The notes under the pieces are model-generated. The model was not told the DNA's origin and did not search any database. It saw only the letters and a program-made list of their open reading frames with translations. From positions 104,674 through 168,673 of the forward strand of contig JAYVBJ010000043.1 in the NCBI GenBank assembly GCA_043750535.1: a stretch of DNA of 64,000 nt. The letters are read 5' to 3'. Below, piece after piece: positions 50,975 to 64,000 of the stretch. The position numbers were made by a program, and so were the translations under genes. The number at the start of each line of letters is the position of its first letter. Position 1 is the first letter of the stretch. The stretch comes from Sphingomonadales bacterium. GTDB taxonomy: Bacteria; Pseudomonadota; Alphaproteobacteria; Sphingomonadales; Sphingomonadaceae.

Positions 50975-51025
50975 GAAATTTATCCTCTATTAACTCAGAG
51001 CGAAAATATTATCGCTGAAACCGGG

Positions 51026-51403
51026 TCAGCGCGATGCAATCCGGTTGTTAAACTGCGCTAACGCTATCTTTGCCGCATCACGCGAAGACATGATGGTGCC
51101 GTCTGCCAATTCTACGTCAAACACATCGCGGCTTGCCATCGCGGACTGATACAAACGAATGGCGTCGGAATGCCGGCCCATACGTTGATATGCACGGCCA
51201 AGGTTCAAAAGCTTTGCAGGATCAGAAGTATTCTCATCTGCATGCGCCAAAATTTGCTGGACAGCGCGCTGATTATCACCGGCCATCAACGCATCATAAC
51301 CAAGTTCGCCGGTTTGATAACCAACTTCACCTTTGGGTTCATTGGCCTGCACAGGAACACTGATCATTACCGTCAAAGCAGCAATGCAAAATGCCTTTTT
51401 CAT
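51026..51403 (-). CDS. Secreted TPR-containing protein
   Basis: Signal peptide (VQA), 'DPAKLLNLGRAYQRMGRHSDAIRLYQSA' TPR. Confidence 0.8.
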   Translation of the reverse strand: MKKAFCIAALTVMISVPVQANEPKGEVGYQTGELGYDALMAGDNQRAVQQILAHADENTSDPAKLLNLGRAYQRMGRHSDAIRLYQSAMASRDVFDVELADGTIMSSRDAAKIALAQFNNRIASR

Positions 51404-51433
51404 TTCGACTCTCCTCAATCACAAATCGTCATT

Positions 51434-51451
51434 GTTACAATAATATGACAA
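51434..51451 (-). promoter_or_regulatory. Probable Pho box
   Basis: Minus strand TTGTCAT-ATTA-TTGTAAC. Confidence 0.55.
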
Positions 51452-51571
51452 ATATGAAATATTTTCAAATTAAATAAATTTATAATTATAGATTTATTTT
51501 CAGAATATTAAGAGGTTTTTTGGGAATCATGAGGTCCAACGGAAATCACAGCGAAACGACATTTGTCCATC

Positions 51572-51961
51572 TACTGATCCTGAAACTCGATCACATCGGG
51601 GGATATCTCGAAAGTTGTCGTTGAGCCTTTGCCTGGGCCCGCTTCGTCAATCATGCGGAAGTGAACCATGTTACCCTCAAGCTTGCAATCGTAGGTGAAA
51701 ATTTGCCATCGTCTCGGGTTTAGGAGAGCCGGACAATGCTATCTGAAACATCTCCAACTTTTAAACGGGCGCTGGCAGTTCCATTTCGAAACGAGATACC
51801 GCCTCGACACACCCAAACCATGTCCTCTTCTGACAAAACCGTGGCGGTTGCAGAGACTGAGTTCGCGCGTAATTCTTTTGAGGCCGTCCCGTTTTCGGCC
51901 GGCTCACTTTCTGCACAGCAAGCCAAAGCAACACAAAGGGGTCTGAAATATTTGCTTTCAT
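51572..51961 (-). pseudogene. Degraded gene for a secreted or lipoprotein-like hypothetical protein
   Basis: Protein-like frame (..VWVCRGGISFRNG..IVRLS) hits TAA at 51720, then RDDGK and a shifted frame TYDCKLEGNMVHFRMIDEAGPG; boundaries approximate. Confidence 0.45.
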
Positions 51962-52081
51962 CCGCGCTTACTAAAAGACCGTTAGCGGCACGCCAATATA
52001 ACCTGCAAATAGCCAGACACATGTATCACCACGTTTCTCCTTCATTGGGCGAACGTTTTCATTTCGCTCCATCAACCAACA

Positions 52082-52588
52082 TTAATGCTTTTGCCCTTTG
52101 CTCCATTCCCAGCATTCGTCACGGCAGCGGTGATGGAATTCAATCGGGTCGTCCACGGTCAGGCCTAAGAGATGCGCGCCAGCAACAAACCCAGCTAAAG
52201 CCTCTTCACCAAGCTCGCCACCGAGCTATATTGCCTTGGTTGCCGCAGATTGCCGTAAGAAGGGGAAGGCCCCGCGCGTGCCAAATGTCGAGCAAGCGAT
52301 CTAGGTGGCCATTACTCCCATTCATTTGGTGCCTTTCCTTTGACCATTCACCCCGCTAGCTGCTGCAAGTGCGCCATAAGACCTGCAAGACTGTTGGAAC
52401 GCCGTTTCTTTCAGATGCTCAAGCGACAAGTCAAAATTAAGTTTGTGTGTCAGCTGCTCACGTCGGACGCGTTCTTCAAGCAAGTCACGGTAAAGCGGAG
52501 CAGTAGTTTTGCCAGCCGCCTCATGGTTGCGGATCCATGATTCGATCTCGGCATTTGTCTTTGATGTCAGTTCCACAGGTCGCTCCAA
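52082..52588 (-). pseudogene. Hypothetical protein with two frameshifts
   Basis: Coherent protein-like text across three frames: ..SYGALAAASGV / EWSKERHQMNG..LPLLTAIC / GELGEEALAGF..ECWEW. Confidence 0.6.
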
Positions 52589-53010
52589 TGACGAATTTAG
52601 AATGGCCGGCTGCCCATGCGTTGCGCGAGCCGAGTTATCTTGTTTGCATAGCCGAAGAGTAGCGCAGTTGCATTAATTTCAAGCTAAACGCTGCCTTCAC
52701 CAGACGTGACGCCGACTTTAAACCCAGCCCATTTTTGGCAAATTGTCATGAAACTGTTTATAGAAGGAGCGCGATCTCAAATTGGTCGCTATGCTGCTAC
52801 CAAAGTTGCGTCCGGTTTGCCAGACGCTGCCGACTGTCCGGTTTTGGCCTGCGCCTGAGGTAAACTGCCATTAGTTCACAGGAATCATTCTCACTTGGTT
52901 TACGATCGATCATCACAGGTTATATCTCCCTTGAACAAAACTGGCCTCTTCCAACCAACTCGGAGAATGTAAAATTGTAGTGGAAAGCGATCCGCAAAAA
53001 CATGCACGTT

Positions 53011-53036
53011 GTAACCATCATCGGGTCGCCGACGAA
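53011..53036 (+). promoter_or_regulatory. ECF sigma promoter motif
   Basis: GTAACC-N16-CGAA. Confidence 0.8.
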
Positions 53037-53080
53037 TGGACCGATAGTTACTGCAACACCTATGACAAAAAGGACTGAAA

Positions 53081-53419
53081 ATGCGCGCTGTGTTCACACT
53101 TTCCATACTTGCTTTTGCGGCATTGCTTGTCGCTCCACCGGCTTTAGCGTCGGGCACATCTGGCGGAGGTTATGGCAGCGGCAGCGGCAGCGGGTCTTAC
53201 CCTGCGACCACGCGCGACCCCGCAGCCGAGGCTTATGCCCGCGGCAAATCTATGGTCAAGAAGCGCATTGCTTGCAAGAAATGTGCTTATCCCCAAGGGG
53301 TGCAGGATACACCGACCGCGCAAAAAGTTGCCGCTAGTGTTCGTTCTGGTGAATTCGCGCTGAAGACTGCCGAGCGCGAACAGGTGCTTTACTATCTAGC
53401 TGAGCGTTTCGGGGCATGA
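53081..53419 (+). CDS. Small secreted CxxC protein (cytochrome-c-like pattern, no His ligand)
   Basis: Signal peptide ALA, Gly/Ser tract, RGK..IACKKCAY; paralog at 62616; RBS aagga. Confidence 0.8.
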   Translation: MRAVFTLSILAFAALLVAPPALASGTSGGGYGSGSGSGSYPATTRDPAAEAYARGKSMVKKRIACKKCAYPQGVQDTPTAQKVAASVRSGEFALKTAEREQVLYYLAERFGA

Positions 53420-53456
53420 TTGAAGCCTGCTTCGTCTGTTAGATTGTCCTGACACT

Positions 53457-55454
53457 GTGGCTGAAACGCGGTCTTTGGCTTCGCTTGCTTTGCTGTTGAC
53501 TGCGATCGCAGGGCTCGTCTTGCTATCGCAGCAGCGTGAGCCTGATGTCTTGACCTATATGTTGCTGCTAGCAGGTTCGGCGGCGGCGATCACGGCTATG
53601 CTGTGGCGCGTTGAGAATATCAGCGCACCTGTGGTCTTCGTCGGGGCGCTGGTGGCCCATGTCATTACTCTGGTGGGTGCGCCTGCATTTGAAGATGATT
53701 ATTTCCGCTTCATCTGGGATGGTTGGCAAACGCTGCAAAAAGGCACACCTTACGGTGTTGCGCCCGATCAGTTTTTTGCCGATGATAGCGTATCCCCTGC
53801 GTTGAAATCGATTTTGGACGGCGTCAACAATCCTGAATATCCGACGATTTACGGGCCGGTTTTGCAAATCAGCTTTGCCGTGGCATTTGCACTTTTTGGG
53901 CCAAATCCGCTTGGTCTCCAACTGCTGTTTGCGGGCGTAAATCTGCTGTTGATTGGCGTGCTGTTGCGACGACACACACCCGCGAAGGTGGCACTTTATG
54001 CATGGAGCCCGCTCGTCATTGCAGAAACGAGTCTGCATTTGCATCCTGACGGGTTGCTGGGTGCGGCGCTGTTTGTAGCGATCCTGGCAGGTCAAAAGCG
54101 GCCCATATTAGCGGGCCTATTTTTCGGGCTGGCCGCTGGCATCAAGCTTGTGGCTCTGGCGGCGTGGCCGTTGCTGCTGCGTTTGCGTCTGCGGGCGCTT
54201 GTGACTGCGATTGCGTCGCTTGGCGGCCTTTATCTGCTGTTTCTCGTTCAAGGCCAAGGTGCAGGTTTTGATTCAACGGCGACGTTTGCCAAGCTTTGGC
54301 ATTTCAATCCGCTGTTGTACGAACCGTTGTTTCAGCTATCTGGATGGCAATCAGGACGCATGCTTGCGTTGCTGATTGCCGGATTACTGGTGCTGTGGCT
54401 CCACGCCCGCAGTCGTTCGATCGACGATGTTCCGTTGGCGGCCATTTTTGGCATCATCTTGCTGTTCGCCCCAGCGGTAAACAGCTGGTATCTGCTGTGG
54501 CTGCTTCCCTTTGCGGTGGGCCGGACGCAGATTTGGCCCTTTGCCGCGACGATAGCATTGCCATTTTCTTATCTGACAGGGCTAAATCTGGGCGATCCGG
54601 AATTGGAGGCATTTGCCGTTCACCCGCTGGCGCGCATCGCAGAGGTAACGATCCTGTCGTTGGCCCTCATCCATGATTGGCGGACCAACCGCCGTGCAAA
54701 GCTGAACGGCGAGATTGCGCTTACATCACCGCTGGCGGCGCCCAAGATCGCGGTAATCATGCCCGCGTTGAACGAGGAAGCTGCAATCGGCGGCGTCATT
54801 ACGAGCATCCGCAAGGCACTGCCCGAAAACTTGAAGCAAGTGATTGTCGTCGATAATGGCTGCACCGACGACACTGCTGCGGTCGCAGTGGCTAACGGCG
54901 CGATGGTCGTTACCGAAGCCCAGCGGGGCTACGGCGCTGCCTGCCTGACTGGCATTGACTGGCTCGATAAGGATATCGACATTGTCCTGTTTCTTGACAG
55001 CGACGGTTCCGATGTCGTGGCGGATGCGCCAAAGATCATAGCACCGATCACTGCAGGCAAAGCCGATCTTGTCATTGGCTCGCGTTCGCTGGGTGAAATG
55101 GAACGCGGCGCGATGACCGTGCCCCAGCGATATGGCAATTGGCTCGCGCCGCTGTTGGTTCGGCTGATTTGGGGTGTGCGCTATACCGACCTTGGACCGT
55201 TCCGGGCGATCCGGCGAAGCAGCCTGCATGCGCTTATTATGCAGGACCGCGACTTTGGCTGGACCATCGAAATGCAGGTCCGCGCGGCGAAGCAAGGATT
55301 GCGGACATTGGAGATACCAACCGGCTATCGACGCCGCATCGGTATTTCGAAAATTTCAGGCACTATCGACGGCGTGGTTAAAGCTGGTGTCAAAATTCTG
55401 TATGTGATTGGCCGCGAAGCCTTTGGCGATTTTGATGCTGTTCGGCGATCATAG
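53457..55454 (+). CDS. Fusion of a polytopic GT-C (GT87/DUF2029-like) domain and a GT2 polyprenol-phosphate glycosyltransferase domain
   Basis: N-terminal 'EDDYFRFIWDG..NNPEYPTIYGP' plus many TMs; C-terminal 'PALNEE..VVDNGCTD..RGYGAAC..DSDGSD..TDLGPFRAI..GWTIEMQ'. Confidence 0.85.
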   Translation: MAETRSLASLALLLTAIAGLVLLSQQREPDVLTYMLLLAGSAAAITAMLWRVENISAPVVFVGALVAHVITLVGAPAFEDDYFRFIWDGWQTLQKGTPYGVAPDQFFADDSVSPALKSILDGVNNPEYPTIYGPVLQISFAVAFALFGPNPLGLQLLFAGVNLLLIGVLLRRHTPAKVALYAWSPLVIAETSLHLHPDGLLGAALFVAILAGQKRPILAGLFFGLAAGIKLVALAAWPLLLRLRLRALVTAIASLGGLYLLFLVQGQGAGFDSTATFAKLWHFNPLLYEPLFQLSGWQSGRMLALLIAGLLVLWLHARSRSIDDVPLAAIFGIILLFAPAVNSWYLLWLLPFAVGRTQIWPFAATIALPFSYLTGLNLGDPELEAFAVHPLARIAEVTILSLALIHDWRTNRRAKLNGEIALTSPLAAPKIAVIMPALNEEAAIGGVITSIRKALPENLKQVIVVDNGCTDDTAAVAVANGAMVVTEAQRGYGAACLTGIDWLDKDIDIVLFLDSDGSDVVADAPKIIAPITAGKADLVIGSRSLGEMERGAMTVPQRYGNWLAPLLVRLIWGVRYTDLGPFRAIRRSSLHALIMQDRDFGWTIEMQVRAAKQGLRTLEIPTGYRRRIGISKISGTIDGVVKAGVKILYVIGREAFGDFDAVRRS

Positions 55455-55483
55455 CGAACTGATTTCCAAAAAATGCCCGGGTT

Positions 55484-55509
55484 GAAACCTTTTACCAAAG
55501 CGAGCCGAA
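55484..55509 (+). promoter_or_regulatory. ECF sigma promoter motif (one mismatch)
   Basis: GAAACC-N16-CGAA. Confidence 0.65.
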
Positions 55510-55549
55510 TTGCAGTCGACCTCAGAGCTTTTCGAAAGATGCATTCCCC

Positions 55550-55780
55550 ATGAATAAAATCTTGATTGCCGCAGCGATCATCACCCTTGCTTTCCTGCTC
55601 TACCGCTTTGGCCTGGCCATGCGGCATGGGCTGGGTCTCAACAAAATTTTGGGCACCGTTCACGCCTACCCCACGATGATAGAGGCAAATAAATTTGCCG
55701 CTGGTAAATGGAAAAAGGCTAATGCTCCCGAATGGGCCTTCACATGGCTGGAAAAATTCCATAGCTGGCGGCAGGGATAA
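55550..55780 (+). CDS. Small hypothetical protein with an N-terminal TM
   Basis: Follows the promoter motif; stop abuts the RBS (taaggag) of the next gene. Confidence 0.55.
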   Translation: MNKILIAAAIITLAFLLYRFGLAMRHGLGLNKILGTVHAYPTMIEANKFAAGKWKKANAPEWAFTWLEKFHSWRQG

Positions 55781-55788
55781 GGAGAGAG

Positions 55789-56214
55789 ATGATGAAGGCA
55801 CTGTCATTGTTATTTTTACGGGTTTCAACGGGCCTTCTCTGCATGATCTGGGGACTGATCCGTATTGGCAAACCGTCGATCGGTGCCATGGTCAACGGCA
55901 AATATTATGGCGGCATCCTGTCGGGTGAGACAGCGCAATATATCTGGGGTGGATTTCTGTTAGTCGTCGGCCTGCTCACCATATTGGGCTTGTTGCGGCG
56001 CTATGCCTATCCGCTGCAGTCAGCGATCCTGTGTGTTGGCGCGCTTGGTATCTGGAAATACTTGCTTGATCCGCTGGGCCTGTGGTTGCTTGACGAAAAA
56101 AGCGCGCAGGTATTGTTCTTCCCGTCATTGGGCATGGCCGCTGCAACGCTTGTGCTGATTGCCTTCCGCGATGATGATCGCATCGCTCTTGATCGCAAAA
56201 TTGGCCGCCAATGA
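55789..56214 (+). CDS. DoxX-like membrane protein
   Basis: 'LLFLRVSTG..WG', 'VGLLTILGL.RR', about 4 TMs, 'IALDR'. Confidence 0.75.
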   Translation: MMKALSLLFLRVSTGLLCMIWGLIRIGKPSIGAMVNGKYYGGILSGETAQYIWGGFLLVVGLLTILGLLRRYAYPLQSAILCVGALGIWKYLLDPLGLWLLDEKSAQVLFFPSLGMAAATLVLIAFRDDDRIALDRKIGRQ

Positions 56215-56798
56215 CTGTAGTACCGCGACTTGTCCTGTTCGCGCGCTACCCGGTCGCGGGCGAATGCAAGACCCGTTTGATCCCGGCGTTGGGGGCTGAA
56301 GGTGCCGCATCACTGCACCGCAAACTCACCGCACGCACCATCTGTGTGCTGCGCGCGAGCGGTGCTCCCGTCACACTTGCTTATACTGGCGCGGTACAGG
56401 ATGATTTTGAGCGCTGGCTGGGTAGCGACATCGCGTTGGTTGAGCAGGTGGACGGCGACCTAACCGACAAGTTACTCGCATGCCTCAACCCAGCACCCTT
56501 GATATTTTTCGGTGCTGACACACCTGATCTTGGCGCAAGTCATGTCGCGGCGGCAATAGCAGCCCTGCAGAAGCATGAAGTCGTGATTGGCCCGGCGGAA
56601 GATGGCGGCTATTATCTGATCGGAATGCGCAATGCCTTACCCCAATTGTTTGTCGACATGCCGTGGAGCACAGAACAGGTGCTGCCCGAAACACTGGCGC
56701 GGCTGGCGCGGCTTGGGATCACGCCTTTGCTTCTAGAAACATTATCCGATTGCGACCGGCCCGATGACCTTGCCCGCTGGCCAGACCTTTCACCATGA
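56211..56798 (+). CDS. TIGR04282/DUF2064 family (CofC-like) transferase
   Basis: FARYPVAGECKTRL, QVDGDL, GADTPDL, VIGPAEDGGYYLIG, PWST, DCDRPDDL. Confidence 0.9.
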   Translation: MTVVPRLVLFARYPVAGECKTRLIPALGAEGAASLHRKLTARTICVLRASGAPVTLAYTGAVQDDFERWLGSDIALVEQVDGDLTDKLLACLNPAPLIFFGADTPDLGASHVAAAIAALQKHEVVIGPAEDGGYYLIGMRNALPQLFVDMPWSTEQVLPETLARLARLGITPLLLETLSDCDRPDDLARWPDLSP

Positions 56799-57523
56799 TC
56801 CGTGTTACCATCCTCATCCCAACATATAATGAAGAAAAAGCGCTGCCCGAAACGCTGGCGTCGCTTGCCCGCCTCTCTCCTCCACCCAATGAAATCTTGT
56901 TGGTCGACGGCGGGAGTGAGGATCAAACGCAGGAAATTGCGCGCGCCGCAGGGATAAAAACTATCGAAGCCCCGCGCAAAGGCAGAGGTACGCAGATCAA
57001 TCATGGCGTTCAATCGGCCACAGGCGATGTCATCTGCGTGCTGCACGCAGACTCGATATTACCCGAAGATGCCGTTGCGGTGATCCGCGCCACCATGTCA
57101 GACACGCGGATCGCACTTGCAAGCTTTACGCCGCGCCTTGCCGGACCGAGCGGAACCCGGTGGGGCTCGACATTCCACAACTGGATCAAGACATGGTATG
57201 CCCCTTTGCTCACCCGGCCACATTTGTTTTTTGGCGGAGTGCGGCTGCTGTTCGGTGATCATGCTATGTTTTTCCGGCGCGAACATTTCCTTGCCGTTGA
57301 TGGCTGTGATGAGCGTCTCGTCGTCATGGAAGAGGCTGACCTGTGCATCAAATTCGCGCGCTTTGGCCGAACAAAAATGGTGCCGCGCTGGGTTTGGACA
57401 TCGGACCGGCGGATCACCGAATGGGGCCGATGGCGGGCGAATTGGATTTATTTCAAGGTTGGAATGATGTGGGCCCTTGGCGCACGTGCACGGTTGGCGG
57501 AACATTATCCGGATGTGCGGTGA
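56795..57523 (+). CDS. TIGR04283-like GT2 glycosyltransferase
   Basis: IPTYNEE, VDGGSED, GRGTQIN.G, LHADS, FGDHAMF, MEE, TSDRR. Confidence 0.88.
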   Translation: MIRVTILIPTYNEEKALPETLASLARLSPPPNEILLVDGGSEDQTQEIARAAGIKTIEAPRKGRGTQINHGVQSATGDVICVLHADSILPEDAVAVIRATMSDTRIALASFTPRLAGPSGTRWGSTFHNWIKTWYAPLLTRPHLFFGGVRLLFGDHAMFFRREHFLAVDGCDERLVVMEEADLCIKFARFGRTKMVPRWVWTSDRRITEWGRWRANWIYFKVGMMWALGARARLAEHYPDVR

Positions 57524-57535
57524 TTGCGGTTTACT

Positions 57536-58582
57536 TCAACAGCAGGACGCCGCCTGCGCCTCTTGCGACACATCATAGGGTAGCCCGCCGCCACATCCGG
57601 TGAACACGCCGAAATGGCGGCTGAAATCGCCGATGAAGTCGAAATGCGAGGCAAAGCGAGTGCCAGCCAGCATTTTCCAGCTGTTGCCGCATACCGGGAA
57701 CGCCCGGCCTGCTTCTATCATATGATATTTATCAAGGGTGAAGACGCGTTCTTCGCCGATGATGTCACCGCGATAGACGACGGCCTGGCCATAATCTTCG
57801 CATTCCGGCTCCAGCCCGGCCAGCTTGAACAATCGAGAGGTGGCAGAGAAGAAGTGGATACCATCGAGCTTATCGGCAATTTCAGTATCACCAATGCCCA
57901 GCGGGCGGTCTTTCACAAGTCGCGGATCATCGAAACCGGCGCGCTTGGCATGGGCGAGAAAATCACCCCAATAGAGCGCACCCGACAGGCACTCGCCATG
58001 TAGCACCGGATCGGCAAGCAAATGCACAGGCACGCGGCGATCAGAATAGACGTCGGAAAAATACATCTCGCCGCCCGGTTTAAGCAGGCGATGCGCAGCC
58101 TCAAACACTGCGGCCTTATCGGCGACCAGATTAATCACACAGTTGGAGACGATCACGTCAAAGCTTTCCGGTTCCAGATCCAGGCTGCCCAGTTGCTCAA
58201 CATCGCCCTCAATGAAACGCACATTGCTCTTGGCATAGCCAAAACGATCCCGGTGCCAGTCCAGATGAGCGTTCGCAACGGCCAGCTGTTCCGGGGTGGT
58301 GTCTACGCCGACAACCTCACCGCTCTCTCCCACCAATTGTGCAAGGAGATAGGCATCCTGCCCCGACCCTGAACCTAGATCGAGAATACGCGCCCCTTCT
58401 ATGGCTGATGGAGCCACAAGCCCACACCCATAATAGCGCGCCTTCACCTCTTCATGCACATTGGATAGCGCACGGCGGACATACGGCGGCGGCGCATCGG
58501 CCATGGTGCAGGCATCGGTGAGCAGGTCGCCAGAGCCTTGCAACACTTCACCATAATAGTTGCGGCTGTTTTCGATGTTCAT
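57536..58582 (-). CDS. arsM: As(III) S-adenosylmethionine methyltransferase (ArsM/AS3MT-like)
   Basis: YYGEVL..DL.TDAC, YYGCG, LDLGSGSG, SNCVINL, GECLSGALYW, C-terminal CC. Confidence 0.88.
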   Translation of the reverse strand: MNIENSRNYYGEVLQGSGDLLTDACTMADAPPPYVRRALSNVHEEVKARYYGCGLVAPSAIEGARILDLGSGSGQDAYLLAQLVGESGEVVGVDTTPEQLAVANAHLDWHRDRFGYAKSNVRFIEGDVEQLGSLDLEPESFDVIVSNCVINLVADKAAVFEAAHRLLKPGGEMYFSDVYSDRRVPVHLLADPVLHGECLSGALYWGDFLAHAKRAGFDDPRLVKDRPLGIGDTEIADKLDGIHFFSATSRLFKLAGLEPECEDYGQAVVYRGDIIGEERVFTLDKYHMIEAGRAFPVCGNSWKMLAGTRFASHFDFIGDFSRHFGVFTGCGGGLPYDVSQEAQAASCC

Positions 58583-58620
58583 TTAAATTTCCATTTGCTG
58601 GGTATATTATCAAAAAACGG

Positions 58621-58646
58621 TTCGTCTAAAACGATGTTTTTGTTAC
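58621..58646 (-). promoter_or_regulatory. ECF sigma promoter motif for arsM
   Basis: Minus strand GTAACA-N16-CGAA. Confidence 0.8.
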
Positions 58647-58673
58647 AGCATCAATGGCAGCAGGCCATGAAAT

Positions 58674-58699
58674 GTAACCTTTGAACGTCGGAGATCGAA
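58674..58699 (+). promoter_or_regulatory. ECF sigma promoter motif for the radical SAM gene
   Basis: GTAACC-N16-CGAA. Confidence 0.8.
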
Positions 58700-58707
58700 A
58701 CAGAGGC

Positions 58708-59670
58708 ATGAACCAGCCCATATCTCCATTCGCGCTTCAAGGCGCACATCCATTGTCACCGCAAAAATTTTCTGACCCGATTATGACGGCAAAAGGTGAG
58801 CTGCGGGCGCATGTCACAATGACTGGCCTGACTACCCTGTGGTTCAACACCGGCACCTTGTGCAATCTTTCCTGCAAAAGCTGTTACATCGAAAGCTCGC
58901 CGACCAACGACGCGCTTGTCTATATTAGCTTGGATGAGGTTCGCTGTTATCTTGATGAGATTGCCCGCGACGGACTAGCCACGCATGAGATAGCCTTTAC
59001 GGGCGGCGAACCGTTCATGAACCGGGAGATGATACCGATCATCCAGCTGTGCCTGGACCGTGGCTTTGATGTGCTCGTGCTATCGAACGCCATGCGCCCG
59101 ATGCAGCGGTTTGAACGCGAATTGCTGGCGCTGCATGGCCGCGAGCGTTTGACGATCCGCGTTAGCCTCGATCATCACACGCAAGAAGTGCATGAGGCGG
59201 AGCGCGGGCCAGATAGCTGGGACAAAGCGATGGGCGGCCTAGTCTGGCTCGGCAACAACGGCTTTGCCATTGCCGTCGCCGGACGCCATTTGGGTAATGA
59301 GGCAGATGCGGCGGCGCGAGACGGCTACGCCCAGCTGTTTGCCGACAATGGCCTGTCAATCAATGCGAATGATCCGACCCAGCTCGTGCTGTTCCCGGAA
59401 ATAGACGAAAACGCCGACATTGCGGAAATCTCCACCGGCTGCTGGGATATATTGAACATCAATCCTGCGAGCATGATGTGTGCGTCCAGCCGGATGGTGG
59501 TAAAGCGCAAGGACGAAAATGCCCCGCGCGTCGCGGCATGCACCTTGCTGCCCTATCAGGCGGATTTTGATATGGGCGCTACACTTGCCGAGGCTAGCCG
59601 CGAGGTGCGGCTCAACCACCCGCACTGTGCTCGCTTCTGCGTGCTTGGCGGGGCAAGCTGTTCGGCGTGA
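58708..59670 (+). CDS. Radical SAM protein with Cys-rich C-terminus (ArsS-like)
   Basis: CNLSCKSC, FTGGEPF, MMCASSR, HPHCARFCVLGGASC; ATG 58708 lies downstream of the promoter motif. Confidence 0.85.
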   Translation: MNQPISPFALQGAHPLSPQKFSDPIMTAKGELRAHVTMTGLTTLWFNTGTLCNLSCKSCYIESSPTNDALVYISLDEVRCYLDEIARDGLATHEIAFTGGEPFMNREMIPIIQLCLDRGFDVLVLSNAMRPMQRFERELLALHGRERLTIRVSLDHHTQEVHEAERGPDSWDKAMGGLVWLGNNGFAIAVAGRHLGNEADAAARDGYAQLFADNGLSINANDPTQLVLFPEIDENADIAEISTGCWDILNINPASMMCASSRMVVKRKDENAPRVAACTLLPYQADFDMGATLAEASREVRLNHPHCARFCVLGGASCSA

Positions 59671-59671
59671 T

Positions 59672-59697
59672 GTAACAAATCTCAGCGCCAGAACGAA
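59672..59697 (+). promoter_or_regulatory. ECF sigma promoter motif for the PiT transporter
   Basis: GTAACA-N16-CGAA. Confidence 0.8.
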
Positions 59698-59730
59698 CAG
59701 CTTGAAAACCCAAATTAATATGGAGTTCTC

Positions 59731-60720
59731 ATGCTGATCCTGCTTATCGCGACTGCCTTTTTTCTTTCCTTCAGCAATGGAGCTAACGACAATTTTAAGG
59801 GATTTGCGACCAGCTGGGGTTCCGGCTCACTCAGTTACCGGACCGCGTTAATCCTCTCCAATGTGGCGACTTTGGCAGGCGGTGTCGCCTCGATCATTAT
59901 TGCCGATGGCCTGGTTAAACAATTTTCAGGGCGCGGGTTGGTTGATGATGCTATTGTTGCCTCGACAGGCTTTAGTTTTGCCGCCGCCGCCGGGGCAGGC
60001 ATCACGGTGATGCTGGCGACACGTCTGGGCTTTCCCATTTCGACCACGCACGCACTGGTCGGCGGCTTGACCGGAGCAGGGCTGGCAAGCGGCAGCGCGC
60101 TGCAATGGGGGGCGCTCGGCAGTGGCTTCATGCTACCACTGTTAATCAGCCCACTCCTCTCGGCAACGCTTGCCTTTGCCATTTATGGCGGCGCAAGATT
60201 GCTGCAACGCCGATGGGTTCCAGTTTATGGAGGCGACTACCTCGTGCCTGAGAACGATGTCGAAAGCGGAAATCGAACGCTAACAAGCACGCATATCCTG
60301 TCGGCGGTGGCGATCTGTTTTGCCCGTGCGGTGAATGATACGCCAAAGCTTGCGGCATTGATGCTGGGCGCTGGAATATTATCATCCGTCAGCAGTGCCC
60401 TTGCCGTAACGGCTGCGATGATTGCAGGCGGCTGGCTTTTGTCGCGGCGTGTGGCGGAAACGATGAGCCTCAAAATCTCCACTCTCTCGGCGGAACAGGG
60501 CACTACCGCCAATCTTGTAACCGCAGGCTTGGTCCTTGCCGCAAGCCGGTTTAGCTTGCCGGTTTCCACAACCCATGTTTCGGTCGGCTCCATCATCGGC
60601 AGCGGAGCGGCGGCACGCACGCTTGATCTATCGACCGTCCGCAATGTCCTTCTGTCCTGGGTGGTTACATTGCCCTTATCAGCGATGCTCGCCGCCATCA
60701 TAAGATGGGTTATCCTCTAA
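59731..60720 (+). CDS. PiT family inorganic phosphate/anion transporter
   Basis: NGAND, GFPISTTHALVG, VNDTPK, LPVSTTHVSVGSIIG, SWVVTLP. Confidence 0.9.
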   Translation: MLILLIATAFFLSFSNGANDNFKGFATSWGSGSLSYRTALILSNVATLAGGVASIIIADGLVKQFSGRGLVDDAIVASTGFSFAAAAGAGITVMLATRLGFPISTTHALVGGLTGAGLASGSALQWGALGSGFMLPLLISPLLSATLAFAIYGGARLLQRRWVPVYGGDYLVPENDVESGNRTLTSTHILSAVAICFARAVNDTPKLAALMLGAGILSSVSSALAVTAAMIAGGWLLSRRVAETMSLKISTLSAEQGTTANLVTAGLVLAASRFSLPVSTTHVSVGSIIGSGAAARTLDLSTVRNVLLSWVVTLPLSAMLAAIIRWVIL

Positions 60721-61580
60721 AGGACGCGCCCGGCGACAGCATCAAGCCTTCCCATTAACTGCGGATCGCGTTTCGCCGGATCTGTAATCAAGGCAAAATC
60801 AAGGGCAGTGTCGATAGGGCTGGCGGCGCGTTGCAAGGGCAGCGATGCCGCCAAATGGGCAATCAGATCGCGGCCCTTTTCAGCATTGGCCGCCAATTGT
60901 GCGATGATCGCCTCGACCTCAACCGGCGCCTCATTCTCGCGCCAACAATCATAATCGGTGACCATACCGACCAGCGCATAAGGCAGCTCAGCCTCACGAG
61001 CGAGCTTTGCCTCGGGCATTGCCGTCATGCCGATGACATGTGCTCCCCATGCACGGTACATATGGCTTTCCGCACGGCTCGAAAACTGCGGCCCTTCCAT
61101 CGCCAGATAGGTACCCCCGCGATGAACATTTGCACCCGCCTTTTCAGCAGCGGTTGCGACATATTCTGACAGCCGCGGACAAACGGGATCGGCCATCGAA
61201 ACATGCGCGACCAGGCCATCACCAAAAAAGCTCTTTTCCCTTGCAAAGGTGCAGTCAATAAATTGATCGACGACGACAAAATCACCCGGAGCCATGTCTT
61301 CGGCAAGCGAGCCGATGGCCGAGATGGACACAATGTCGGTCACGCCCAACCGTTTCATCGCGTCAATGTTTGCACGGAAATTGAGCTGGCTCGGCCCCAA
61401 CACATGCCCCCGTCCATGGCGTGGCAGAAAGACGCATTCAACGCCGGAAACAGTTCCAGTTAACACCGCGTCGGATGGCGCGCCCCATGGAGTGGTCACT
61501 TCGACCCATTGCGGGTTTTCAAGCGCGTCGAGCTGATAAAGTCCCGAGCCGCCAATTATGCCGATTTTCCATTGTGCCAT
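60717..61580 (-). CDS. mtnP: S-methyl-5'-thioadenosine phosphorylase family
   Basis: GIIGGSGLY, TPWGAPS, PRHGRGH, EGPQFSSRAES, GMT, VTDYDCW. Confidence 0.92.
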   Translation of the reverse strand: MAQWKIGIIGGSGLYQLDALENPQWVEVTTPWGAPSDAVLTGTVSGVECVFLPRHGRGHVLGPSQLNFRANIDAMKRLGVTDIVSISAIGSLAEDMAPGDFVVVDQFIDCTFAREKSFFGDGLVAHVSMADPVCPRLSEYVATAAEKAGANVHRGGTYLAMEGPQFSSRAESHMYRAWGAHVIGMTAMPEAKLAREAELPYALVGMVTDYDCWRENEAPVEVEAIIAQLAANAEKGRDLIAHLAASLPLQRAASPIDTALDFALITDPAKRDPQLMGRLDAVAGRVL

Positions 61581-61590
61581 GCCTGATCCT

Positions 61591-61616
61591 TTCGAAACGC
61601 CGCGCCGACCGGTTAC
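61591..61616 (-). promoter_or_regulatory. ECF sigma promoter motif for the MTA phosphorylase
   Basis: Minus strand GTAACC-N16-CGAA, ending 10 nt before the ATG. Confidence 0.8.
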
Positions 61617-61648
61617 AATTGCCCACCGAAATAAATTATAGCCCTGCC

Positions 61649-61674
61649 GTAACTTTTAACTTCCTCCAATCGAA
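61649..61674 (+). promoter_or_regulatory. ECF sigma promoter motif for the DUF547 operon
   Basis: GTAACT-N16-CGAA. Confidence 0.78.
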
Positions 61675-61732
61675 AAGACAGCAAGAGCAATTCCCGGACG
61701 CATCGTTGGGGACAGGAAAAGGTGTTGCACAA

Positions 61733-62569
61733 ATGAAATATTCCAACGTCCATTCCAGCAACCGACACCTTGGGCGTCGGACCCTGCTGGGTGCGATCTC
61801 TGCTGTGTTGGTGCTTGGGGCGTGCTCAAAACAGACAACGAACACCGACCAGAAATGGACACAGGCTGGGACTGCATCCGAGACGATCGATCATGGCGTC
61901 TGGGATCAAATATTATCCAAATATGTAAAGGTCGCCGAAGATGGCGTGAACCGCGTTGATTATGCCGCGCTGAAAAAGGACGATGCTGCGGCGCTGACGC
62001 GCTACCTGGCCGCGTTGCAAGCGGTTGAGATCGAAAAATATCCGAAGAACGAACAGTTCGCATTTTGGGTCAACCTCTACAACGCTGCGACAGTCGACGT
62101 GATCCTAAAGAACTATCCGTTGAAATCGATCAGGGACATCGGCTTGCTTGGCCAAGGCCCGTGGAAAGCCAAAGCCGTGAAAGTCAGCGGCACGGATTTA
62201 TCGCTCGACGATATCGAACACGGCATATTGCGCCCTATCTGGAAGGATGTGCGCATCCATTATGCCGTAAACTGCGCATCCATTGGCTGCCCGAACCTCG
62301 CGCCCAAAGCCTATACAGCTGAAACGCTGAACGCGATGCTGGACGAAGCAGCGCAGTCTTACATCAACCATCCCCGCGGCTTTGCCCGGGTTGACGGCGC
62401 GCTCGTCGCGTCCAGCATTTTCGACTGGTACGTCGATGATTGGGGCGATCAGGCCGCTGTCCTTGAACATGCCCGCAAATATGCGTCGGAAAAGACCAAG
62501 GCCGTCCTGGGTGCCACCACCCAAATCGACAGCCATGATTATGACTGGTCACTCAACGACGCAGAGTGA
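61733..62569 (+). CDS. DUF547 domain lipoprotein (twin-arginine-like signal)
   Basis: RRTLL...LGAC signal; AFWVNLYNA, SLDDIEH.ILR, RIHYAVNCASIGCP, SSIFDWY, YDWSLN. Confidence 0.9.
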   Translation: MKYSNVHSSNRHLGRRTLLGAISAVLVLGACSKQTTNTDQKWTQAGTASETIDHGVWDQILSKYVKVAEDGVNRVDYAALKKDDAAALTRYLAALQAVEIEKYPKNEQFAFWVNLYNAATVDVILKNYPLKSIRDIGLLGQGPWKAKAVKVSGTDLSLDDIEHGILRPIWKDVRIHYAVNCASIGCPNLAPKAYTAETLNAMLDEAAQSYINHPRGFARVDGALVASSIFDWYVDDWGDQAAVLEHARKYASEKTKAVLGATTQIDSHDYDWSLNDAE

Positions 62570-62615
62570 CCGTCGCTAAACGCTTTCCCCCCAAGTCTCA
62601 GAAAGGTTTGTTACT

Positions 62616-62900
62616 ATGATAAAGTTAGGATTTGTTGTTTTTGGAGGAGTATTGCTCGCCCTCGCGTCTCCCGTCTTGGCCTCCGGCTCGATGGGCGGCG
62701 GTGCGCAGAGCGGCCAGCTTGGACAAAAAGTTTACCTGCAAAAGATAGCATGTTCAGGATGCCCGTTTGCCGGTGGCATCAAGACGCGTGATCAAAGAAG
62801 CATGGCTCTGGCAAAAATTGCGAGCGGCGAAATCAAGATGACCGGTTCCGAGATGAAAGCCGTGTCGACGTTTATCAATCGCCGGTTCAAGGGGCTTTAA
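62616..62900 (+). CDS. Small secreted CxxC protein, paralog of 53081-53419
   Basis: Signal peptide VLA, SGSMGGG, LGQKVY..KIACSGCPF, SGE, RF C-terminus. Confidence 0.8.
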   Translation: MIKLGFVVFGGVLLALASPVLASGSMGGGAQSGQLGQKVYLQKIACSGCPFAGGIKTRDQRSMALAKIASGEIKMTGSEMKAVSTFINRRFKGL

Positions 62901-62902
62901 TC

Positions 62903-63748
62903 ATGACTTTTCTCACAAAAGCCCTAGTTTCAGCCGTCGCACTTACTGCTTGCGTGCCAGCGGCATTCGCTAACGATATTTCCCCCTGGACGCCTGCCGA
63001 AGGTGGCGGCGAAGTGGAAATTTCCTACACGCGGCAGGAAGCCGATGAATTCAACCCCGGCGACGCCACCGCGCCGCTTCCAGAAGAGTTGACCCAAGAC
63101 AGCGTTTCGTTGTCGCTCAGCTATGGGATCAGCCAGCGGCTCGCCGCCGATGTAAAAATCGGATATGCGAAAAGCAGCTTTCTCACCGACCCCGGCCTTG
63201 CGCCGCAGGGCGGGCTTGACGGTTTAAATGATATCTTCGTCGGGCTTCGCTATAAGGCGCTCGACGAAGCCGATGGTGCGCCCTTTACGGCGACGCTGGG
63301 TGTTGCTGGCATTATCAATGGCGGTTACACCACAGGCGCATTACCAGCTATTGGCGACGGCGGTTCTGGTGGCCAAGTTGCCTTGGCGCTAGGTCGCAAC
63401 ATCGGCCCGTTCGCAATCAGCGGCGATATTGGTTACCGAACTCGCTCGAACAACATACCCGACGAAGTTTTTGGAGCGGTTAACGCGAGCATATCGCCGA
63501 CGTCGGGCATTTCGCTTTATGGTGGTATTTCGTTCGTGGATTCCACCAGCGGCCTCGACATCGGTGGCCCAGGCTTCTCGCCCGCACGCTTTCCTGAAGT
63601 CGAAGAGGATTATAAAATTTGGTCGCTCGGGGCCTCGGGGTCACTATCCGACCAGATCTCGGCCAACATAGGCTATGGGCAGAAATTCGATGGACGCAAT
63701 ACCGCGCGTAGCGAATTTTTCCGCATCGGTTTGGGCTATTCCTTCTAA
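62903..63748 (+). CDS. Outer-membrane beta-barrel / transporter-like protein
   Basis: Signal peptide AFA, alternating beta strands, 'GLNDIFVGLRY', C-terminal GLGYSF. Confidence 0.78.
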   Translation: MTFLTKALVSAVALTACVPAAFANDISPWTPAEGGGEVEISYTRQEADEFNPGDATAPLPEELTQDSVSLSLSYGISQRLAADVKIGYAKSSFLTDPGLAPQGGLDGLNDIFVGLRYKALDEADGAPFTATLGVAGIINGGYTTGALPAIGDGGSGGQVALALGRNIGPFAISGDIGYRTRSNNIPDEVFGAVNASISPTSGISLYGGISFVDSTSGLDIGGPGFSPARFPEVEEDYKIWSLGASGSLSDQISANIGYGQKFDGRNTARSEFFRIGLGYSF

Positions 63749-63749
63749 C

Positions 63750-63790
63750 TAGGCCCGATTTCATTTTGGTTGAACCAAAATGCGGGTCTA
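63750..63790. terminator. Hairpin closing the island's last operon
   Basis: cattttggtt-g-aaccaaaatg core with an outer taggcccg/cgggtcta pairing. Confidence 0.55.
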
Positions 63791-64000
63791 GATTGTTTGA
63801 TGTTTCGCGATTTCTTAATCATCAGATGATTCAATCGGATTGGAAATCGCTCTCGGCCATCGAGGGGGTAGATGGTGCAGTCATCTACCCTCTACCTCCT
63901 TGTTGCGGTTGGTCAGTTTCATCTCGGCAATGCGTCGTCCCAATAATGCAGTCAGCTGGGCCACCGAAGTTACAGATTCCAATTCGCTTCGGCTGATCAG

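Follow-up and report, generated by a model that had tools for sequence, protein, structure and literature searches.

Among the organic arsenic species of marine food webs, arsenosugars and arsenosugar phospholipids predominate. In the literature that we searched, the enzymes reported for arsenosugar synthesis were those of the first steps only, ArsM and ArsS, and to our knowledge the later steps toward arsenosugars and arsenolipids have stood unresolved since the 1980s. ArsS adds a 5'-deoxyadenosyl radical to dimethylarsenite, DMAs(III), to give 5'-deoxy-5'-dimethylarsinoyl-adenosine (DDMAA) (PMC13598754). Here we describe a gene island at positions 53011 to 63748 of a 64-kb stretch of sphingomonad DNA (the whole stretch is called the window) that comprises twelve intact genes and one relic. 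Its gene content is homologous to that of arsenosugar-type clusters, including canonical loci with ArsM and ArsS, a likeness that a preliminary description of the window had correctly pointed out. We consider it somewhat probable that the island is an alphaproteobacterial version of such a cluster, in which ArsS has been replaced by another radical S-adenosylmethionine (SAM) enzyme and which, under envelope stress control by SigF and NrsF (ECF16), would serve the route outlined below. The window lies on contig C43 of a 2.4-Mb genome (65 contigs, 88% complete, 55% G+C). The nearest relatives of the source genome are sphingomonads of the genera Novosphingobium, Erythrobacter, and Blastomonas, both metagenome-assembled genomes (MAGs) and isolates.

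Other parts of the island recall further described systems. The sequence GTAACC-N16-CGAA is the promoter of SigF-type (ECF16) sigma factors, whose inducers are chromate and cadmium in Caulobacter and hypochlorous acid in Brucella, and Caulobacter NrsF requires C131 and C181 for control (PMC3511200, PMC8315932). The Caulobacter SigF-NrsF, Brucella BcrS-AbcS, and Bradyrhizobium EcfF systems have in common with the genome studied here this promoter, an NrsF with two cysteines, and a sigF-nrsF pair beside a DUF2282-MNIO-DUF2063 operon, the DUF2282 operon being the bufferin operon (PMC11626156). Their published regulons, however, consist of bufferin, Msr, and DoxX genes, and an arsenosugar-type island with eight promoters was not found among the published targets. 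A counterpart of the sugar-transferring enzymes is known from Mycobacterium tuberculosis, in which lipoarabinomannan is capped with methylthioxylose (MTX); the GT2 glycosyltransferase MtxS (Rv0539) makes polyprenyl-P-MTX, and MtxT (Rv0541c) is a GT-C glycosyltransferase. By pathway logic, this cap is the closest worked-out precedent for the predicted sugar arm of the island, in that an adenosine-derived 5-deoxy-5-substituted pentose is placed on polyprenyl phosphate by a GT2 enzyme and on an envelope glycoconjugate by a GT-C enzyme (PMC8780516, PMC12088412). The MTX system differs in that it belongs to another phylum, has another acceptor, carries methylthio instead of arsenic, and works without a radical SAM enzyme, ArsM, or TIGR04282. 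The MTX locus presumably also holds a gene (Rv0535) for S-methyl-5'-thioadenosine phosphorylase (MTAP). The same pairing occurs in the modification of lipid A, in which ArnC, a GT2 enzyme, makes an undecaprenyl-P-sugar and ArnT, a GT-C enzyme, transfers it; in the island, in contrast, both predicted activities lie on one polypeptide.

The island shares with the cyanobacterial ArsM/ArsS pathway a TIGR04282 protein, a TIGR04283-like GT2 enzyme, the cysteines of ArsM, and a radical SAM enzyme in the same position. However, the radical SAM enzyme (58708 to 59670, + strand), to which the preliminary description had given the role of ArsS, is by its sequence not ArsS and belongs to an unnamed family without a curated model that we call rSAM-X. 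It scores 58.9 bits against the ArsS model TIGR04167 (cut-off 300), matching positions 3 to 151 of 303, whereas true ArsS proteins reach 380 to 480 bits. Its best NCBIfam match, the Rv1681 family (94.6 bits, cut-off 380), covers the generic core only, as does a profile comparison of rSAM-X with ArsS by hhalign (99.4% probability, 178 columns). The protein has a CX3CX2C core, CNLSCKSC, and six further conserved cysteines. The two families may have a three-cysteine C-terminal motif in common; the C-terminus of the island enzyme, HCARFCVLGGASC, compared with HCYGCTAGQGSSC in ArsS, has similar spacing and a different sequence. In the protein collection rSAM-X drew more than 8,000 matches, the best 120 of which were at least 60% identical and all but one of these at least 70%. 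In the genome collection the family spans at least 594 species, mostly Alphaproteobacteria.

The distribution of rSAM-X suggests that it occupies the place of ArsS in the cluster. In a sample of 301 Pseudomonadota genomes, in which ArsS, rSAM-X, and TIGR04282 were tallied by hand, TIGR04282 occurs in 161; ArsS accompanies it in 124 of these and rSAM-X, or a relative 31 to 36% identical to it, in 25, while 12 have neither and none has both. No P value is attached to these counts because related genomes are not independent; the pattern spans many families. Seen from the other side, TIGR04282 is present in 25 of the 26 genomes with rSAM-X. An ArsM-type gene was found in 14 of 25 complete rSAM-X genomes and adjoins rSAM-X in 7 of them. 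The genes within 10 kb were also counted in 80 loci around rSAM-X orthologs and include those for TIGR04282 (45 loci), TIGR04283 (37), a MerA/Lpd-like flavin disulfide reductase (37; 23 plain and 14 in a long form of ∼734 amino acids), a thioester-reductase-like short-chain dehydrogenase/reductase (SDR; 19), MTAP (19), a fatty-acid hydroxylase (18), an ArsM-like protein (17), and MsrA (6). Thus, rSAM-X shows the genomic association with TIGR04282/TIGR04283 and ArsM that is characteristic of ArsS, and from this gene context we infer an adenosylating activity.

Individual loci bring the two versions of the cluster together. Loci L118, L177, L184, and L125 came from a search of metagenomes in which the query was the fusion protein described below. 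L177 is a canonical operon on one strand, with genes for a reductase, AsSugarArsM, an unknown protein, ArsS (414 bits), a DPM-like GT2 enzyme, a GT-C-like protein, DUF547, and a TIGR04282/04283 fusion, and it resembles the island in having the flavin reductase (a relic in the island), DPM-like GT2, GT-C, and DUF547 as accessory genes. The gene order in L184 is MTAP, rSAM-X (37% identity), DUF547, reductase, GT2, TIGR04282, and TIGR04283, and that in L125 is ArsM-like, GT-C, GT2, TIGR04282, and TIGR04283. The locus L109, with a true ArsS, reads ArsM-like, TIGR04282, TIGR04283, reductase, ArsS, MTAP, and MsrA. Judging from these sequences, the cluster repeatedly includes GT2, GT-C, DUF547, the reductase, and MTAP, whether its radical SAM enzyme is ArsS or rSAM-X. 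The preliminary description had expected its accessory genes to co-occur with arsM and the radical SAM gene in other genomes; upon profiling, MTAP, GT2, GT-C, and DUF547 did so, and PiT, the barrel, and CxxC paralog B were seen in the nearest relatives only.

The ArsM-like SAM methyltransferase (57536 to 58582, − strand) differs from the ArsM of the known pathway in falling below every curated ArsM cut-off (NF008823, 157 bits versus 263; NF038099, 85.5 versus 400; NF040538, 130 versus 500); it matches Methyltransf_31 with 110 bits. It aligns over its full length with the bona fide AsSugarArsM of L177 (NF038099, 559 bits), and C25, C53 (YGCG), C148 (NC), C198 (ECLSGA), C261, C298, and the terminal C347-C348 are invariant between the two. 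The As(III)-binding cysteines and the SAM-binding fold that define ArsM are both present. To the ArsM-like gene adjoining the true ArsS of L109 the identity is 59%. The TIGR04282 (DUF2064) protein (56211 to 56798, + strand), which is GT-A/nucleotidyltransferase-like, belongs to its family with 181.9 bits (cut-off 134) over positions 1 to 189 of 189. Its PDB relative 3cgx is labelled a nucleotide-diphospho-sugar transferase, and a literature search for DUF2064 was without result. The soluble TIGR04283-like GT2 enzyme (56795 to 57523, + strand) scores 175.5 bits against a cut-off of 182, by far its best match, at full length (2 to 215 of 221), and matches Pfam Glycos_transf_2 with 96.6 bits.

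The genes of the island are tied together by a promoter motif, GWAACH-N16-CGAA, that by its sequence is the published SigF/NrsF (ECF16) promoter, an identity that the preliminary description had not given. Seven copies occur in the window, all of them between 53011 and 61674, intergenic, and facing the next gene; the expectation from shuffled sequence is 0.69 copies, and none of 100 shuffles reached 7. An eighth copy precedes a gene for a 134-amino-acid protein just past the window. The 2.4-Mb genome holds 33 copies in all, and those that belong neither to the island nor to the sigF locus occur at the chance rate. That sigF locus lies on contig C40 (L003:3968-7323, minus strand), with genes for DUF2282, an MbnB-like MNIO, and DUF2063 followed by sigF and nrsF. 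The motif stands there before the DUF2282 unit and before the sigma factor gene, and the NrsF-family anti-sigma factor of the genome retains two cysteines. An ECF16 regulon is marked by the published motif in front of its genes and by a matching sigF-nrsF pair in the same genome. Both are present here, and the C40 pair probably regulates the island.

The promoter P1 (GTAACC-N16-CGAA; 53011 to 53036, +) begins the island 44 nt before the start of the gene for CxxC paralog A, and P2 (GAAACC-N16-CGAA; 55484 to 55509, +) precedes the relic. P3 (58621 to 58646, −) serves the ArsM-like gene, P4 (58674 to 58699, +) the radical SAM gene, P5 (59672 to 59697, +) the PiT gene, P6 (61591 to 61616, −) the MTAP gene, P7 (61649 to 61674, +) the unit of DUF547, CxxC paralog B, and the barrel, and P8 (window-equivalent 64316-64341, C43:168989-169014, −) the 134-amino-acid protein gene beyond the window end. 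Since the ATG codons of the radical SAM and MTAP genes follow the −10 element by just 8 and 10 nt, respectively, their transcripts are predicted to be leaderless or nearly so. Eight SigF-type promoters and several strand switches mean that eight transcription units are predicted, not one operon. The preliminary description had spoken of a co-regulated island of 13 genes behind one promoter motif. All 13 reading frames are present in the sequence and the motif does run across the island, so that co-regulation stands as far as the motif goes; one of the 13, however, is a deletion relic, and the 134-amino-acid protein gene, on the minus strand, is a 14th co-regulated gene.

Of the 80 related loci, 30, including Caulobacter and Acetobacterales MAGs, keep the motif before their orthologs of the radical SAM, ArsM-like, reductase, and SDR genes, and it is kept in L006, L115, and L118 as well. 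P1 is kept upstream of the CxxC paralog A ortholog in L010, L115, and L118; P3 before ArsM-like orthologs in L010, L014, L021, L026, L027, L034, and L059; and P4 before rSAM-X orthologs in nine loci, Caulobacter and Acetobacterales MAGs among them. A P2-type motif precedes the intact reductase gene of L118, a P6-type motif its MTAP gene, and a P7-type motif also occurs in L115. In this the island is again unlike the known pathway, as no copy of the motif occurs in the 239 kb of 12 loci that surround true ArsS genes in other classes of proteobacteria. A MAG of Sphingomonas sp. (L086, 20.9 kb) has eleven exact copies in 21 kb around its rSAM-X ortholog, a far higher density than in the window.

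An envelope-directed arm is suggested by a fusion protein of 665 amino acids (53457 to 55454, + strand), which joins a GT-C domain (approximately residues 1 to 415) to a polyprenyl-phosphate-sugar-synthase-type GT2 domain (approximately 430 to 650); in the known ArsM/ArsS clusters, in contrast, GT-C and GT2 are not fused. The GT2 half (Glycos_transf_2, 70 bits; AglJ/DPM-like, 129 bits) resembles the polyprenyl- and dolichyl-phosphate sugar synthases AglJ, DPM, and PpgS. The GT-C half matches Pfam GT87 with 20 to 23.4 bits, under the cut-off of 25. Its structural model (pLDDT 78.8) has PimE, ALG3, ALG6, ArnT, and EmbB as top PDB matches, all of which use lipid-phosphate sugar donors, with a TM score of 0.52 to 0.57 against PimE and a Foldseek probability of ∼1 but E values of 0.003 to 0.1. 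On the strength of the model, we assign this half to the GT-C fold; D81 (FEDDYFRF) in its first loop is invariant. Because GT2, GT-C, and DUF547 recur even in the canonical operon L177, an envelope-directed sugar arm can fairly be inferred. To that extent the envelope system proposed in the preliminary description is supported; the barrel and CxxC paralog B are present in nearest relatives only.

The DUF547 lipoprotein (61733 to 62569, + strand) has an RR motif, an LGAC lipobox, and an invariant C-x4-C-P, and homologs are found in canonical and variant clusters (L177, L184, and L079). Its structural model is confident (pLDDT 85.3) yet gave no convincing PDB match (best Foldseek E value, 0.57; best VIA-align Z score, 4.7), and a sequence search of the PDB gave none either. 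The family motifs C-x4-C-P and NLYNA/IEH..ILR look like an active site. Of the two secreted CxxC paralogs, paralog A (112 amino acids; 53081 to 53419, + strand), with a signal peptide recognized by eye, has orthologs directly upstream of the GT-C/GT2 gene in L006, L010, L012, L115, L116, and L118. The ortholog of paralog B (94 amino acids; 62616 to 62900, + strand) was found in L009 only. Neither paralog matched a Pfam or NCBIfam family. A language-model search placed them near cytochrome c clusters (0.91), and we rejected a c-type cytochrome assignment, as CxxCH occurs in none of seven orthologs; the motif of paralog A reads CKKCAY, CKKCAH, CKKCDY, CKKCEY, or CTACEY. The predicted outer-membrane barrel (281 amino acids; 62903 to 63748, + strand) has a signal peptide and a C-terminal GYSF, its one family match being Phenol_MetA_deg at an E value of 0.02. 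A 141-amino-acid membrane protein (55789 to 56214, + strand), weakly DoxX-like (E value, 0.037), has orthologs in L009, L118, L029, and L080.

Taken together, these predictions outline a route. Thiol-reactive metal(loid) or oxidant stress would inactivate the two-cysteine anti-sigma factor NrsF and so release SigF. The ArsM-like enzyme would methylate As(III), and rSAM-X would join the resulting methylarsenical to a 5'-deoxyadenosyl group from SAM, in a reaction the same as or close to that of ArsS. MTAP is a candidate for the next step because the product would be an analogue of S-methyl-5'-thioadenosine (MTA) in which arsenic takes the place of the 5' sulfur; phosphorolysis would remove adenine and leave a 5-substituted ribose-1-phosphate. 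This sugar phosphate could be converted to a nucleotide sugar by the TIGR04282 protein, from which the TIGR04283-like GT2 enzyme might make soluble glycosides. The GT2 half of the fusion would put the sugar on polyprenyl phosphate, and the GT-C half would move it to a membrane acceptor at the periplasmic face. An arsenosugar phospholipid is a phosphatidylglycerol ribosylated on its head-group glycerol, and because of this structure our preferred guess for the GT-C acceptor is that glycerol, which would make an arsenosugar phospholipid the product. The DUF547 lipoprotein, CxxC proteins, and barrel may act as periplasmic partners, and PiT is probably a lineage-specific accessory.

Several findings weigh against this reading. 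The radical SAM enzyme stays far below the ArsS cut-off, as described above. An ArsM-type gene was not found in 9 to 11 of the 25 complete rSAM-X genomes (∼40%), and 35 of the 80 rSAM-X loci are without any cassette gene within 10 kb. PiT, the barrel, CxxC paralog B, and the 134-amino-acid protein are restricted to the nearest relatives, the last three being found only in L009 besides the island. The MTAP gene is the only copy found in the genome and so may simply encode a housekeeping enzyme. The disulfide reductase and the SDR of the closest relative have been lost from the island, and neither acr3 nor an ars operon was found in the 88%-complete genome. We know of no measured activity for TIGR04282, TIGR04283, DUF547, or this GT-C protein. 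The inducers reported for ECF16 systems are chromium, cadmium, hypochlorous acid, and reactive oxygen species, and arsenic is not known to be among them.

The preferred route has to be set first against a mosaic SigF regulon that is not one pathway. Here, a core of the ArsM-like, radical SAM, TIGR04282, and TIGR04283-like proteins would make a soluble organoarsenical, and the other units would have separate stress functions: envelope remodeling with ordinary sugars by the GT-C/GT2 fusion, DUF547, the CxxC proteins, and the barrel; salvage of MTA or 5'-deoxyadenosine by MTAP; and uptake of phosphate or sulfate by PiT. Known SigF regulons are indeed heterogeneous (PMC3511200, PMC8315932), the eight separate promoters and several strand switches fit such a patchwork, and many homologs of the GT2 domain lie on contigs without cassette genes. 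The MTAP (60717 to 61580, − strand) scores as an ordinary MTAP equivalog, above both cut-offs (NF006492, 458.4 bits versus 437; TIGR01694, 306 versus 275), and is, as said, the sole copy. PiT, a PHO4-family inorganic anion permease (59731 to 60720, + strand; PHO4, 192 bits), lies far under the CysP and PitA cut-offs (69 and 47 bits), so that phosphate, sulfate, and arsenate are not told apart; its confinement, with the barrel and CxxC paralog B, to the nearest relatives speaks for the mosaic too. It is whole only here and in L009, and in L118 it is a 63-residue fragment (L118:19084-19275) between the radical SAM gene and the MTAP gene, which tells against the place as a pathway step that the preliminary description had given it. 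MTAP itself, however, adjoins the cassette in at least five different and unrelated gene arrangements, including one beside a true ArsS, in keeping with the link first proposed. Moreover, distant lineages (L177, L184, and L125) have the DPM-like GT2, GT-C, and DUF547 in the same single-strand operons as ArsM/ArsS or rSAM-X. On this evidence we regard a mosaic as rather unlikely.

It may also be asked whether arsenic is only a side substrate and the cassette builds, by analogy with MTX, a 5-deoxy-5-(methylthio or other chalcogen or metalloid) pentose that would be placed on the envelope as a sacrificial, repairable antioxidant. MTAP yields methylthioribose-1-phosphate from MTA, and MtxS and MtxT form a like pair of GT2 and GT-C enzymes (PMC8780516, PMC12088412). 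ECF16 regulons center on methionine-sulfoxide repair and on hypochlorous acid, reactive oxygen species, and metal stress (PMC3511200, PMC8315932); in line with this, MsrA adjoins the cassette in the six loci counted above and in L109, and the disulfide-reductase flavoprotein is present in 37 of the 80. The carrier genomes without ArsM and the lack of ars genes in the source genome fit this idea as well. Against it, the ArsM-like enzyme of the island has lost none of the As(III)-binding cysteines, synthesis of a methylthio sugar needs no radical SAM enzyme, and the sole known biochemistry of the sister enzyme ArsS concerns arsenic. We judge it distinctly unlikely. Two matches to the ArsC family in the source genome, one YffB/Spx-like and one Grx-type ArsC-like (101 bits, cut-off 106), were considered as ars genes and rejected, neither being in an ars operon.

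The relic (55550 to 55780, + strand) also bears on how the island is to be read. Its 76 codons derive from a gene that is intact in L118, the closest relative of the island (74 to 88% identity gene by gene), where it encodes a DedA/TVP38-like membrane domain fused to an FAD disulfide reductase (∼712 residues). Relic residues 16 to 23 (LLYRFGLA) are identical to residues 26 to 33 of the L118 protein, and residues 22 to 76 match its last 55 residues at 87% identity. The deletion is in frame, removed ∼640 codons, and left promoter, start, and stop in place. The route had originally been called complete and free of gaps, which can no longer be said with the membrane-anchored reductase, which relatives keep, reduced to a relic here and the SDR of L118 absent. 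That the whole island is decaying here and its end product is no longer made is very improbable: the relic and missing SDR and the erosion in relatives (a GT-C stop in L009, the PiT fragment in L118) would fit, but none of the other 12 genes is damaged, their catalytic residues are conserved, every promoter is whole, and the in-frame deletion preserved the downstream operon. The stop in L009 is a single in-frame codon in the GT-C domain (L009:2093-3334).

If the arsenosugar reading holds, an alphaproteobacterial envelope response with arsenic-containing sugars would be deliberate and triggered by the SigF metal/oxidant sensor. The island and its relatives supply concrete candidates for every later step of arsenosugar synthesis and a second radical SAM family, spread over at least as many species as given above, in the ArsS position. 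The wider claim is that the later arsenosugar and arsenolipid steps run through MTAP, TIGR04282, a DPM-like GT2, and GT-C, that SigF switches an envelope response, and that a second radical SAM family forms carbon-arsenic bonds; we put it forward tentatively and hold it to be doubtful as a whole. The link of the cluster to a defined stress regulator suggests a way of inducing the pathway in the laboratory, and the hypothesis is open to direct test in cultured carriers of rSAM-X (Erythrobacter donghaensis, Qipengyuania aquimaris, Aurantiacibacter, Parasphingorhabdus, and Sphingomonas humi). The core is nearly identical in, for instance, E. donghaensis CCH17-B8 (L012), Parasphingorhabdus sp. DH2-15 (L015), and Q. 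aquimaris JCM 12189 (L044).

The surroundings of the island can be described briefly. In the 1.5 kb upstream (51450 to 53000) no open reading frame (ORF) has a Pfam or NCBIfam match, and G+C content is 0.46 to 0.50 there, compared with 0.54 to 0.58 in the island. No Rfam RNAs, riboswitches included, were found in 51000 to 64000, and counts of sigma-70 promoters and intrinsic terminators were at chance level. In the clustering of loci, a family of long antisense ORFs ("unk346") was discarded because it is the complement of the radical SAM gene. Likewise discarded was an ORF at 63766 to 63996 (+ strand), which overlaps the minus-strand gene of the 134-amino-acid protein. The 3' part of that gene lies in the window (63881 to 64000), and the gene extends to window-equivalent 64285. 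Its product, a cytoplasmic CxxC protein with a CALC motif, has no Pfam or NCBIfam family and yielded only unnamed clusters in the protein atlas; its ortholog lies within the island of L009. The contig continues for ∼7 kb beyond the window. Past the 134-amino-acid protein gene, three minus-strand ORFs of 516, 511, and 398 amino acids (L002:14487-18784), photolyase/cryptochrome-like by eye, form the downstream border of the island.

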